Assembly (NCBI RefSeq): GCF_964213995.1
Contig: NW_027590388.1
Span: 1 to 64,000 of the forward strand
From: Mustelus asterias
Lineage: Eukaryota
DNA length: 64,000 nt
Reading direction: 5' to 3'
The notes beneath the pieces were generated by a model. That model saw only the letters and a list, made by a program, of their open reading frames with translations. It ran no database searches and was not told the origin of the DNA. Position numbers and translations under genes: made by a program. This document shows positions 53,755-59,310 of this stretch, one piece after another (position 1 is the first letter of the stretch; every line of letters begins with the position of its first letter).

Positions 53755-53803
53755 CACTGAGACCCACAGTGAATGAGGCTCCCGCGGGCCTCATACAAAA
53801 AGT
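53755..53803 (+). other. Remnant TCR V 3' end (10 nt) plus orphan 23-bp-spacer RSS
   Basis: cactgagacc, then CACAGTG (53765-53771), 23 nt, ACAAAAAGT (53795-53803); the 10-mer matches the end of the intact V (cgctgagccc) at 8/10. Confidence 0.85.
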
Positions 53804-54189
53804 GACGCAGACGTTTCAGGGTCAGAGAAAAAGAGTCGGATCTCAACGAAAATGCGCAGGAAATGAAGGCCACAATACAGCCCCAGCTGAATAATATTCC
53901 CCCACTGAGCTCAGCCATTGTCAGTGTTGTGAAATGTCACATTTGCCATCCTATTATTCCCGGATCAAATCCAACCATTCTCCGATCCCATCCGCACAAA
54001 ATCTGCAGATTACCCCGGGTGAATAACTTCCTTAATCTGTACTTAGAAAAATTCTGGATTCGGTGCCTATCTGCCCGGCGACACATTTTAAAAGTGATCT
54101 ATTATCAAATGCAGCCTCAGAATTGTTCCATTTTCAAGTCCGTGGAGCAGAAATAATAACTGATTGAAATCAGAGCTTTTCTATTTGGG

Positions 54190-54650
54190 GAATAGAGGGG
54201 TACAGTGAAGATTTACTATGCTGATTCCTGGGATGGCAGCTCTGTCATATGAGGAGAGATTAAATCCGTTAGGATTATATTCACTGCGGTTTCGAATAGT
54301 GAGAGGGGGTCTCATAGAAACTTATAAAATTCTAACAGGGTTCGACAGGGTAGATCCAGAAGACTGTTCCCAATGGTGGAATCCAGAACCATGGGTCATC
54401 TTTTGAAGATAAGGGAAAAACTGAGGTGAAGGGAAATTCCTTCATCCAGAGAGTGTTGAATGTATGGAATTCAATACCACCGAATGTAGTTGAGGCCAAA
54501 ACGTTGTCTGATTTCAAGAAGAAATTTGATATAGCTCTTGGGGCTAAAGGGGTCGAGGGGGAAGGAGGATCAGGATATTGAATTCCATGATCAGCTATGA
54601 TTACGATGAATGGCGGAGAAGGCTCCTGCTTCTAGTTTCTATGTTATGAG
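54190..54650 (+). mobile_element. Degraded CR1 3' fragment
   Basis: ORF 54218-54406 LSYEERL..LGLYSL..GGLIETYKIL. Confidence 0.82.
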
Positions 54651-54774
54651 TCCGTGAAATATTTCCTGGTGCAGAGTTGAGTGACTACTTATCCCCGGTA
54701 TACTTACAGCACTAACTATTAATTATGTTGAGTCCTGGATGCTACTCATTAATCCCTGTACGTTAGGCTGCTGA

Positions 54775-55076
54775 ATCATTGAATCCCGACAATGCAGGAT
54801 GGAGCCTGTCCCGACAACAATCCCACCCAGGCCCTATCCCCGTAACCCACATATTTACCCTGCTATCCCCTGACACTTAGGGTAATTTTGCGTGGCCAAT
54901 CCAGCAAACCTGCACAGTTTAGGAATGTGGAGGGAAACTGGAGCACCTGAGGAAACCCACGCAGACACGGTGAGAAAGTGCAAACTCCACAGAGACAGTG
55001 ACCCGAGGCTGGAATCGAACCCGTGTCCCTGGGGCTGTGAGGCAACAATGCGAACCACTGCGCCACCGTGTCACCC
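54775..55076 (-). mobile_element. HE1-type V-SINE
   Basis: Head and V-domain on the minus strand. Confidence 0.87.
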
Positions 55077-55302
55077 ATAAATGATTAAATTAGAAAAAAG
55101 GATCTGCCTTAAGAAAGATTGATGGACTGAGTTCTGAGGAAAGCGAGTTAACCAGTTAATGAGACAGAATAAGTGATGATGTGGGAGAGAGCAGAGAGAG
55201 AGCAAAGACTTTAGAAATAAGTTTACGGCCAGGGAAGGAATGTGATTGGAAAGTGCCAGCTATATTAAATCATTAACTAACAGTGATTGGTTCACTGGTT
55301 AC

Positions 55303-55625
55303 GGGGCGGCATGATGCCACAATGGTCAGCGCTGCTGTCTCACAGTGTCAGGGACCCGGGTTCAATTCCGGCTTCGGATCACTTTCTGTCTGAGTTTGCA
55401 TGTTCTCCCAGTGTCTACGTGGGTCCCCTTCGGGTTCTCCTGTTTCCTCCCACAGTCCAAAGATGTGCAGGTTAGGTTGATTGGCCATGCTAAATTGACC
55501 CGAGCGTCAGGGGATACGCAGGGTAAATACATGGAGTTGCGGGAGTGGAGCCTGGGTGGTATTGTGACCGGTATAGACTCGATGGGGCGAATGGCCTCCT
55601 TCTGCACTGCAGGGATTTTATGATT
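55303..55625 (+). mobile_element. HE1-type V-SINE abutting the V promoter
   Basis: Full head and tail. Confidence 0.87.
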
Positions 55626-55628
55626 CGC

Positions 55629-55734
55629 AGCTGACGTCAGCTCAGGGAGATGAGCCAATCGCAGCACTGAGAAACGCCTCCCTGTTTCTGAATACTTGAA
55701 GCTGCCTCTGATCTGAGTTCACTCTGTGATATAA
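55629..55734 (+). promoter_or_regulatory. TCR V promoter: CRE, CCAAT and TATA-like box
   Basis: Palindrome AGCTGACGTCAGCT 55629-55642, CCAAT 55655-55659, TATAA 55730-55734; ATG at 55793. Confidence 0.7.
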
Positions 55735-55792
55735 GACTAGAGGCAGCAACTTATTGTAAACATTGTCGCTGCTTACTGTCCAATCAGGAACC

Positions 55793-56230: not shown

Positions 56231-56269
56231 CACACTGTTACAAAGGCGCAGTGAGCCCGTACAAAAACC
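56231..56269 (+). other. Recombination signal sequence, 23-bp spacer
   Basis: CACACTG (56231-56237), 23 nt, perfect ACAAAAACC (56261-56269). Confidence 0.95.
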
Positions 56270-56469
56270 TGCAAAGGCACTCTCACCTCCTCTCACTGAA
56301 TCAGATCTGTGACCTGGATTGTGAACTGTTAATACAAACAGAACAATTGTATAACGAAGAGTTAGTCCGAATGTTCTCATTCCATGGTGCTGAATGTGCC
56401 ATTCTTGTTTAAACACTCTGCAATGCTGAGACTGGGAGAAGTGAACAACAGGGGGCAGCATTGCAGCTT

Positions 56470-57560
56470 CCATTTTACTATTATTCCTTCCAAAGTGGAT
56501 AAGCTCACACTTACCAACGCTATACTCCATCTGCCAGATCCTCGCCCACTCACTTAGCCTATCCAAATCTCTCTGCAGACTTACCGCATCCTCCACGCAA
56601 TTCACTTTCCCACTCATCTTTGTGTCATCCGCAAACTTTGTTACCCAACACTCGGTCCCCTCCTCCAGATCGTCTATGCATATGGTAAATACTTGAGGCC
56701 CCGGCACCAATCCCTGTGGCACGCCACTAGTCACCAACTGCCAACCAGAAAAGCGCCCATTTATTCCAACTCTCTGCTTCCTGTTAGATAGCCAATCCCC
56801 AATCCACGCTAACACTTTACCCCTAACTCCGTGCACCCTGATTTTCTGCAGCAACCTTTTGTGAGGCACCTTATCGAACGCCTTCTGGAAATCCAAAAAC
56901 ACCACATCCACTGGTTCCCCTCTGTCAACCGCACTCGTTACATCAACATAAAAATCCAGTAAATTTGTCAAACACGACTTTCCCTTCATGAATCCATGCT
57001 GCGTCTGCTTGATCAAACCATTTTTTTCCAGGTGTCCTGCTATTTCTTCCTTAATGATGAATTCCAGCAATTTCCCAACTACGGACGTTAAGCTAACCGG
57101 CCTGTAGTTACCCGCCTTTTGTCTACCTCCTTTTTTAAACAGTGGCGTCACATTAGCTGTTTTCCAATCAGCCGGCACTTCCCCAGAGTCCAGCGTATTT
57201 TGATAAATTACAACCAACGCATCCTCTATTACTTCTGCCATTTCTTTCAGTCCCCTGGGATGCATTCCATCCGGGCCCGGGGACTTGTCTACCTTTAGTC
57301 CCATTAGCCTCCCAAGCACTACCTCTTTAGTAATAGTAATCATTTTAAGGACCTCATCCCCTACAGTCCCATGACCGTCAATTTTCGGTAAGCTATTTGT
57401 GTCCTCTACCGTGAAGACTGATACAAAAAACTTGTTTAAGGCCTCAGCCATTTCCTCGTTTCCCATTATTAAATCCCCCTTCTCATCTACTAAGGGTCCA
57501 ACATTTACTTTAGCTACTCTTTTCCTTTTTATATATTTGTAAAAACTTTTACTATCTCTC
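56470..57560 (-). mobile_element. CR1 ORF2 RT fragment with an open frame
   Basis: KSPGPDGMHPR, NYRPVSLTSV, LDFQKAFDKVPH, KFADDTK. Confidence 0.95.
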
Positions 57561-57566
57561 TGTCCC

Positions 57567-57770
57567 TCCCCCCCCCCCTGGGCTTTGCCCCCCCCCCCCC
57601 CTGGGCTTTGCCCCCCCCCCCTGGGCTTTGCCCCCCCCCCCCCGGGCTTTGCCCCCCCCCCCGGGCTTTGCCCCCCCCCGGGCTTTGCCCCCCCCCCCCC
57701 GGGCTTTGCCCCCCCTGGGCATTGCCCCCCCCCGAGCATTGCCCCCCCCCGAGCATTGCCCCCCCAACCC
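57567..57770 (-). repeat. G-rich minisatellite (caaagcccNg(n)), G-quadruplex-prone
   Basis: About 10 units of gggctttg or gagcattg separated by long C runs on the + strand. Confidence 0.85.
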
Positions 57771-57834
57771 ACACATCCTGGGACACTAAGTGGCAATTGA
57801 GCATGGCCAATCAACCTAACCTGTACATCTTATA

Positions 57835-57993
57835 AACAGTAAGAAGTCTCACAATACCAGGTTAAAGTCCAACAGGTTTATTTGATCGCACGAGCTTTCG
57901 GAGCACTGCTCCTTCATCAGGTGAATGGCCACTCACCTGATGAACCTGGTGTTGTGTGCCCACCCCAGTCCAACGCCGACATCTCCACGTCAT
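57835..57993. mobile_element. Inverted Penelope pLTR fragments
   Basis: Same family as 15317-15445 and 17055-17393; hairpin ttcatcaggtga / tcacctgatgaa (57913-57944). Confidence 0.75.
57889..57923 (-). ncRNA. Minimal type-I hammerhead ribozyme with intact core
   Basis: CAC-CUGAUGA-A-GGAGC(AGU)GCUCC-GAAA-GC-UC-GUG. Confidence 0.7.
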
Positions 57994-58887
57994 CTTATGG
58001 ACTGCAGATTGATTCTCTGTAGAATCCTGTTCTTTCTCTCTATCAACATTCCTCTGCAAGTTTTATTTCCTTCAAGTACCCATCCAATTTCATTTTGAAA
58101 TGATTGAATCTTCTGTTCCACCATCCTCATAGGCAGCGAGTTCTAGATCATGTGCTCTCCCTACCTAAATATAAATCTTCCTCAAATCCCTGCTCTACCA
58201 CTACTCAAGTAATGTCCTGTATGTTACACTTTTATCCAGTATTATAGACATCTGTCTGGCAGCCTGCATGGAGATTTTCAGCTCCCTGTGTCCAGGACAG
58301 GAAGCCGTGAGCATGGATCTGTCAATCAGCCTCAATCAGCACCTTCAGGAGAATTGGGAGGGTGAATATTAGATACAGCAGAGTGAGAATTGAGGGAGAG
58401 TGTGTGGGATGGAGATTTACTGCGTTTGGGGAATGAGAGAGGAAAGAATGTTCCATAGAAACTAGAATTGTCTGTTCTGAATTTCTGTCCTGTACTGACA
58501 CTGATGAATTTTGTAATCTCCTTTTGCAGGATATCAGAAGGTGGGGATTTACAGACAGAAATCTCGAATCAAACGTCACATCAACATCTGACAGACATTT
58601 GATTGATTGGGACCCGAATATCATTGGCCTTTCAATCTTGAAGGAGAAATCTTTTAATGTTCTGTCTGCGTCAGAATTTTTTATAACATAAATGTGACTG
58701 GAAATACACCAAGACACAGACACACCTGAGTGAGAGTGTTCCAGTGCACTGAGTGTGGAAAGAGCTTTAACCAGTTACACAGCCTGAAAATACATCGCAG
58801 TATTCACAGCGGGGAGAGACTGTACCCGTGTTCTGTGTGAGATTTAATTGACTGTTTAACCAGGAGGGTGACAAAGACACCTGCACC

Positions 58888-59310
58888 ATGGAGAAACCGT
58901 GGAAATGTGGGGACTGTGGGAAGGCATGTCAGTGCCCATCTGAGCTGGAAACCCATCAACGCAGCCACACCGGGGAGAGACCATTCACCTGCCTTGAGTG
59001 TAGGAAGTGTTTCACTCAGTCAAGCAACCTGCTGAGACACAAGCGAGTTCACACTGGGGAGAAACCGTACACTTGCTGTGTGTGTGGGAAGGGATTCACA
59101 CATTCGTCCACCCTGCAGGATCACCAGCGGGTTCACACCGGGGAGAAGCCTGTCACCTGCTCCAAGTGCGGGAAGGGATTCAGTCGGTTATCAAACCTGC
59201 AGGAACACCAGCGAGTTCACACTGGGGAGAAACCATGCACCTGTTGGGCGTGTGGGAAAGGATTCACTCAGTCATCCAGCCTGCTGAGACACCAGCGAGT
59301 TCACAAGTGA
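58888..59310 (+). CDS. ZNF copy K: 5 fingers, 140 aa
   Basis: Uninterrupted ORF; mini-exon 58296-58361 and acceptor at 58529 present. Confidence 0.85.

Follow-up and report, generated by a model that had tools for sequence, protein, structure and literature searches.

How an intact T-cell receptor (TCR) variable (V) gene comes to lie among zinc-finger (ZNF) genes, and whether its rearrangement would cost a T cell some of those neighbors, is the question raised by the first 64,000 nucleotides of scaffold NW_027590388.1 of the shark Mustelus asterias (assembly GCF_964213995.1). We refer to this whole stretch as the window (C356:1-64000, genome label G000; C356, C71, C546, and similar labels denote scaffolds of this assembly). 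The window carries an intact TCR alpha/delta V gene, with leader, intron, V exon, and a recombination signal sequence with a 23-nucleotide spacer (23-RSS), flanked on both sides by ZNF genes. We lean toward an account in which ZNF-linked duplication scattered and multiplied the alpha/delta locus, most copies of the window V being passengers and the loss of ZNF genes being a tolerated bystander effect. By itself the window V is a duplicated segment of an ordinary kind; what is new is its setting, a variant form of the alpha/delta locus.

The gene has the hallmarks of a functional TCR alpha/delta V, namely a leader, a GT-AG intron, an open exon with the Cys/Trp/Cys residues, and a 23-RSS directly 3' of it. 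Its spliced frame of 117 amino acids is free of stops and ends in DSAVYHCALS, matches the Pfam V-set domain (E 1.4e-17), and has TCR alpha chains among its best matches in the Protein Data Bank (PDB). The RSS heptamer is unchanged in all 30 family copies examined. As an earlier note on this DNA had claimed, the V lies complete between two ZNF genes, which that note called ZNF J and ZNF K and whose frames hold 11 and 5 fingers, and its count of 11 ZNF copies in the window was borne out by our finding of 11 ZNF arrays. In what follows, "twins" are the 13 assembled copies of the window V with ZNF flanks, and "array copies" are family members in ZNF-free V arrays. The features of the gene and its two neighbors are these:

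55793-55838, plus strand: V leader exon, with four amino acid differences from the array-type leader of L032
55839-55923, plus strand: V intron, GT-AG, spliced identically in a contig from run X1 that is ~90% identical
55924-56230, plus strand: TCR alpha/delta V exon with an open frame in which the tryptophan and both cysteines are retained
56231-56269, plus strand: 23-RSS of the V, heptamer with one mismatch, nonamer perfect
52102-53118, plus strand: upstream ZNF open frame (ZNF J), 11 C2H2 fingers
57759-59310, plus strand: downstream ZNF unit (ZNF K), with a 5-finger frame at 58852-59310 and one extra finger in another frame

The window V is one of many copies. Its exact protein (100% amino acid identity) is encoded at 13 places among 150 scored candidates genome-wide, and a second set of Vs, at 91-95% identity, is located in V-dense DNA. 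The copies extend into the neighboring genes: a 7-kb region with both ZNF flanks matches at 99-100%, whole on 11 contigs (the window's own included), split into two pieces on one further contig, and interrupted by the contig end on another. The twins differ by 0.17% on average, comprise 10 distinct sequences over 2 kb, and in a tree fall together as a single clade inside a set of 17 array copies (support 1.0, branch 0.035). We infer one capture, followed by recent amplification together with the ZNF neighbors. With C71 the window shares one such segment:

50120-64000, continuing to C356:72,644, no strand assigned: duplicated block of 22.5 kb shared with C71 at 97-99.6%

Within the 114 and 120 kb compared, this block is all that C356 and C71 have in common. 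It is likely that inherited segmental duplication copied the V piece with its ZNF neighbors. The leader of the twins also bears marks of its own: five twin-specific substitutions fall at 55797-55826 in an exon of 46 nucleotides that varies by only 1.4% among array copies. One twin (L006, on C89) is without a start codon, at the equivalent of window position 55794.

How the V entered ZNF DNA can be read from the edges of the captured piece, which are made up as follows:

53119-53756, plus strand: ZNF 3' flank, common to 18 of 18 V-less paralogs up to a 2-nucleotide microhomology, after which the sequences part
53755-53764, plus strand: 10-nucleotide stub of the coding end of an upstream V, starting at the edge of the TACTGTG heptamer that lies within the donor V
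53765-53803, plus strand: orphan 23-RSS, heptamer perfect, nonamer with two mismatches
53755-57556, plus strand: array-derived piece, 92-94% identical to ZNF-free V arrays, the match ending at 56405, 57271, or 57556 according to the array copy
56432-57127, minus strand: reverse-transcriptase fragment, likely of a long interspersed element, also present in some array copies
57560-57765, no strand assigned: C-rich simple repeat spanning the right junction, whose exact position it obscures

Seventeen of 18 array stretches (10 kb each) match the window from 53755/53757 onward, where in the arrays an upstream V precedes the same RSS, and none of the 18 contains C2H2 fingers. On the other side, all 18 V-less ZNF paralogs stay alike as far as that point and diverge beyond it; 97% V-less paralogs of the downstream ZNF unit are present on C89. 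Because array copies match from, and V-less ZNF paralogs diverge at, one and the same point, a 3.5-3.8-kb piece of a V array was evidently joined, to judge from these alignments, to the 3' flank of a ZNF gene. The junction also settles the nature of the second, destroyed V that the earlier note had placed some 2 kb upstream of the complete one. A stub and a 23-RSS do lie there (53755-53803), but no V-like remnant accompanies them: tblastn found no second V-like stretch in the window (next match, E 0.8), and the only RSS besides that of the complete V, at 53765, has no V-like protein upstream. Decay of a second V in place is thus rejected; 10 nucleotides and the 23-RSS are all that remain, the remainder having been left behind at the rearrangement junction, and the open frame of the upstream V was confirmed in one donor array copy. 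We also rejected a clean insertion with target-site duplication, no such duplication being found at the junction.

The left junction lies 0-2 nucleotides from the border of the TACTGTG heptamer embedded in the donor V, a motif that is the 3' cryptic heptamer of V-gene replacement and needs no nonamer (PMC3526766). It is therefore conceivable, if unlikely, that germline RAG made the junction at that heptamer, as in V-gene replacement, an explanation compatible with any of the readings weighed below. Yet the coincidence is a single event noticed post hoc, the junction shows a 2-nucleotide microhomology and no target-site duplication, and the right end falls within a simple repeat; since no heptamer is present on the ZNF side of the break, such a cut remains a lead. 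A 23-RSS-like motif (one mismatch in the heptamer, two in the nonamer) recurs in or beside ZNF arrays (C356:121692, 158580, 257251, and 294691; C71:15117665 and 15143386; C546:93388), and these sites are possibly cryptic RAG targets.

Could the window V be used where it lies? The 364 of the 386 kb of C356 that were read (the last 22 kb being outside coverage) hold 43 ZNF arrays and another V patch at 330-346 kb, but neither J nor C, and genome-wide searches for C and transmembrane (TM) exons gave no match on this scaffold. The window copy looks orphon-like because its scaffold, so far as read, offers no J or C. V orphons are intact Vs carried off by segmental duplication, and the window V resembles them in being intact, segmentally duplicated, and without J-C on its scaffold; it is unlike them in that one twin, on C71, lies on the same scaffold and strand as a J-C unit. 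Both alternatives of the earlier note, a true alpha/delta V array and orphons carried by ZNF-linked duplication, thus capture a part. The annotation of the flanks that it proposed yielded, in the 364 kb read, the second V patch and no J or C. The thirteen copies at 99-100% with both ZNF flanks, the sharp array junction, and the lack of J and C in that DNA establish the duplication reading for the window copy, but not as a plain case of an orphon: ZNFs also border the J-alpha/C-alpha units of this genome or stand between them and the Vs. Most twins likely rearrange rarely because they have no J-C on their scaffold, and these twins, the window's included, would be passengers. A lone family V on the 63-Mb scaffold C24 (C24:38776876-38777145, L172; 87-89% identical) is truncated at its 3' end, has no RSS, and is likely a true orphon.

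The J-alpha and C-alpha genes that such a V would use proved to have ZNFs nearby too. A genome-wide J pattern gave 23 matches, versus none for the control, and led to two J arrays. C-alpha exons numbered two among 44 candidates and are 74% identical to each other; both bear the signature CLXTD-(X)F published for C-alpha (PMC10322711), and both are preceded by J arrays with RSSs of 12-nucleotide spacer (12-RSS). TM exons are intact in both units, and all 21 candidates of the TM search proved to be TM exons, these two of alpha and 19 that belong to a third type. The identity of the C genes as TRAC and TRDC is indicated by the signatures CLXTD-(X)F and CLXXXFXP, C1-set domains, TM segments with Arg and Lys, and the presence of D only before delta. 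The Pfam family DUF1968 found no C-alpha, PDB searches with the C exons matched only generic immunoglobulin (Ig) C1 domains, and protein searches, weak because of their small candidate sets, gave neither a full chain with the window V nor a counterpart of C-alpha2 in another species.

On C546, ten Vs on both strands (32-63 kb) are followed by four ZNF arrays (68-94 kb; open frames of 9-16 fingers), then by 129 Js and the C-alpha1 exon. Two good 12-RSSs upstream of this J array (C546:120814 and 121302) have no FGxG J behind them and are possibly relics or D-like elements. The second unit, on C71 at 18.37-18.43 Mb (L107-L113), consists of 31 Js and the open C-alpha2 exon within ZNF DNA, in a 250-kb gap-free stretch in which the first J comes 9 kb after a ZNF and ZNFs resume 55 kb past the TM exon; the database model P0006 spans this unit. 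The 90 kb before the C71 J array contain no V, so that any upstream V must come from across ZNF DNA. One twin lies at 15.165 Mb on the plus strand, 3.2 Mb upstream of the J-alpha/C-alpha2 unit, which is also on the plus strand; this scaffold has at least 17 V-RSS sites, of which 11 are on the plus and 6 on the minus strand. Of 20 stretches of 10 kb sampled from the DNA that separates the twin from the J array, 7 contain 9 ZNF arrays in all, or ~140 by extrapolation over the interval.

This layout bears on the proposal of the earlier note that rearrangement deletes ZNF genes. The proposal follows from the order of genes on C546; for the window V itself no deletion was observed. Given 12/23 geometry, joining of a plus-strand V of C546 to J-alpha would delete the four ZNF arrays, and joining of a minus-strand V would invert them, whereas a joint made by the C71 twin would remove 3.2 Mb of DNA and, with it, some 140 ZNF arrays. 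A database model, P0007, splices the V at 32.2 kb of C546 to C-alpha1 across the four ZNFs and would fit a rearranged allele, the RNA support of the model not being visible. Somatic ZNF deletion would therefore result from the placement of ZNFs between V and J, and it is likely, on this gene order, that T cells delete some ZNF genes while assembling their receptors. Such loss would most likely be incidental and tolerated, the ZNF family being highly redundant, and would not amount to a regulated dosage mechanism.

The third type of constant gene is C-delta. Its exon bears the delta signature CLXXXFXP and was found in 19 copies among 111 candidates, on 17 scaffolds and at three separate places on C71; all 19, three of them at 81-83% identity, are stop-free, and they comprise 14 distinct sequences. 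Three of the 19 units were read:

C71:7.09-7.18 Mb; C110:950-1000 kb; C436:190-260 kb (L201-L220, L039): TCR-delta V-D-J-C-TM units, sequence read

All three repeat the same organization, as in a minicluster: each has Vs, a single D, C, and TM, with between one and four Js, and the J sets differ from one unit to another. The D segment of the C436 unit has 12/12 spacers. No ZNF was found in the 50-90 kb read at each of the three. No C-delta precedes the J-alpha arrays in the 138 kb (C546, with a gap of 200 N) or 90 kb (C71) read, ZNFs lying there instead, and the C-delta search had no match on C546 or at C71:18.28-18.53 Mb. On C436 a 93% relative of the window V lies 21 kb upstream of the delta J, so that members of this V family may be used by delta in addition to alpha. 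On C154 a twin lies 3' of a delta unit. Behind one V of C71, two perfect 23-RSSs stand 61 nucleotides apart (C71:7091239 and 7091300).

To what extent are these genes used? The earlier note had looked to expressed sequence for DSAVYHCALS joined to a J, and here the search came back empty: among assembled contigs no V-J joint was seen for the window V or any other V. Four runs matched over 53000-58600 were swamped by repeats and gave no joint, and no RNA dataset was listed as containing the window V. Runs X1 and X2, presumed RNA from another organism and one study, match 55700-56340; their contigs end near 56206 with no loose end listed and give no evidence of joining. In the X1 contig the splice between leader and V agrees exactly with the annotation, but the leader alleles are of array type. 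Runs X4 and X6, possibly the very data from which the assembly was built, gave short contigs identical to the twin; the depth of contigs does not measure copy number.

Several explanations have to be weighed. The multiplicity could be largely an assembly artefact, arising from haplotigs or false duplication, and it is true that the majority of copies sit on small scaffolds, that three of the 13 twins are identical over 2 kb, and that the 19 C-delta exons reduce to 14 sequences. But a diploid allows at most two copies per locus, versus 10 twin and 14 C-delta sequences; the three C-delta units of C71 are at separate places, the two C-alphas differ by 26%, the delta units differ in their J sets, and C356 and C71 diverge outside their 22.5-kb block, all of which makes the artefact very improbable. 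Alternatively, only C546 and one delta unit work, and the twins, C-alpha2, and the extra C-delta genes are silent duplicates, unused by-products of ZNF amplification. Many scattered members of the V family contain stops, the L006 twin has lost its ATG, and C-alpha2 has a single database model; yet C-alpha2 has kept an open frame despite 22% synonymous divergence and all but one of its 31 Js are stop-free, every C-delta exon is open, the three divergent ones included, and even on this view four ZNFs stand between V and J on C546, so that we consider a purely silent origin improbable. At the other extreme, the twins would be routinely used with C-alpha2 or C-alpha1 as a working dispersed field of Vs, and T-cell clones would lose megabases of ZNF genes. 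The strand and position of the C71 twin, the lack of Vs in the 90 kb before the C71 Js, the V-RSS sites of that scaffold, the few private changes in the twin V exon, and the Vs of other sharks scattered over megabases in both orientations (PMC12227049, Table S1) all point this way. We nevertheless regard routine use as unlikely, for 11 of the 13 twins lie on scaffolds without a C match and that of C154 is on the 3' side of its delta unit, no joint was seen among the contigs, the sole spliced relative comes from another organism and has array-type leader alleles, and the copies are too young, at 0.17%, for intactness to indicate selection.

The reading that we favor starts from what the assembly shows: a V-array piece of 3.5-3.8 kb joined to a ZNF 3' flank and present with its ZNF neighbors in 13 assembled copies, two J-alpha/C-alpha units, 19 C-delta exons, and ZNFs between V and J. 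The duplication process that made the copies has likely also multiplied the alpha/delta locus and spread it over ZNF-rich DNA, with duplication among ZNF repeats as the presumed driver. A number of observations weigh against parts of it. Besides the missing V-J joint, C356 and C546 are separate small scaffolds with no assembled link to C71, the 200-N gap of C546 lies between ZNFs and Js, where continuity depends solely on collinearity with the paralog on C71, which has no gap, and unpurged haplotypes could roughly halve the copy counts. That the twins are passengers is in some tension with retention of the start ATG in 12 of 13 and with the rate of change in their V exon, which has one twin-private change in 307 nucleotides versus 39 in 1362 upstream (p 0.006, falling to p 0.066 once two clustered patches are dropped), a weak sign of selection or constraint, or of conversion. 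As for the function of the extra C genes, the ratio of nonsynonymous to synonymous differences (pN/pS) is ~0.8 among C-delta copies, a value that also suits silent duplicates, and 0.65 between C-alpha1 and C-alpha2, and database models number one for C-alpha2 versus five plus P0007 for C-alpha1; such selection on the C-delta and C-alpha copies as these ratios suggest appears weak. A stronger form of our account, in which a translocon was converted into an antibody-style multicluster within a ZNF megacluster, with two working alpha loci, many working delta units, and clones losing clone-specific ZNF sets (up to a hundred or more) through dispersed Vs, is possible but doubtful.

The delta units have parallels elsewhere. 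Marsupial TCR-mu has a clustered layout, which they resemble in being repeated small V-D-J-C units; they are unlike both TCR-mu and shark Ig miniclusters in that they encode TCR-delta and have a single D with between one and four Js. The alpha/delta locus as a whole departs from the canonical TRA/TRD translocon in having no C-delta directly upstream of J-alpha in the DNA read (C546 with its gap) and, in place of one C-alpha and one C-delta, 2 and 19 in this assembly. Shark Ig miniclusters are also built of repeated small V-D-J-C units (PMC12227049). The elasmobranch alpha/delta locus is there called a translocon, with one TCR-alpha C entry per species and delta C once each in catshark and stingray, and that paper makes no mention of zinc fingers; a review also gives shark TCR loci a translocon layout (PMC6795676). 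Our locus is like the elasmobranch field of PMC12227049 in its Vs scattered over megabases in both orientations and unlike it in its 2 C-alpha and 19 C-delta genes and in the ZNFs between V and J. TRA and TRD have been reported as separated in newts (PMC12698447), and ZNF copies have been noted around shark MHC-like genes (PMC10751288). Human IGL is similar in having non-receptor genes, ZNFs among them, between V and J: ZNF280A, ZNF280B, PRAME, and GGTLC2 are deleted there by rearrangement (PMC9282919). That is a B-cell locus with four such genes, whereas here a T-cell locus has four to perhaps more than 100 ZNFs, their deletion being deduced from layout. Scattered shark Vs and bystander ZNF loss at human IGL are thus already in print; in the literature searched, subscription journals being outside coverage, we found no report of multiple shark TRAC or TRDC genes or of ZNF interleaving.

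Many TCR-delta V-D-J-C units, together with two alpha units separated from delta, would show one gene family switching between translocon and minicluster layouts. Such a layout would allow direct tests of allelic exclusion and of alpha/delta lineage choice in a setting where delta is no longer lost upon alpha joining. The ZNFs that separate V from J-alpha would provide a simple test of the tolerance of T cells to programmed loss of transcription-factor genes.

Finally, we note some features that lie outside these questions. Nine 10-kb samples of C232 (L163-L171) are all without V or ZNF, although many Vs lie elsewhere on that scaffold; because of these samples, the V arrays appear to be patchy. 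Upstream of the V in the window, 54799-55076 and 55304-55583 form an inverted pair of a high-copy repeat, 75% alike and likely short interspersed elements, and the ZNF genes at 40258-41715 (minus strand) and 51600-53059 (plus strand) are inverted paralogs that are 89% identical.

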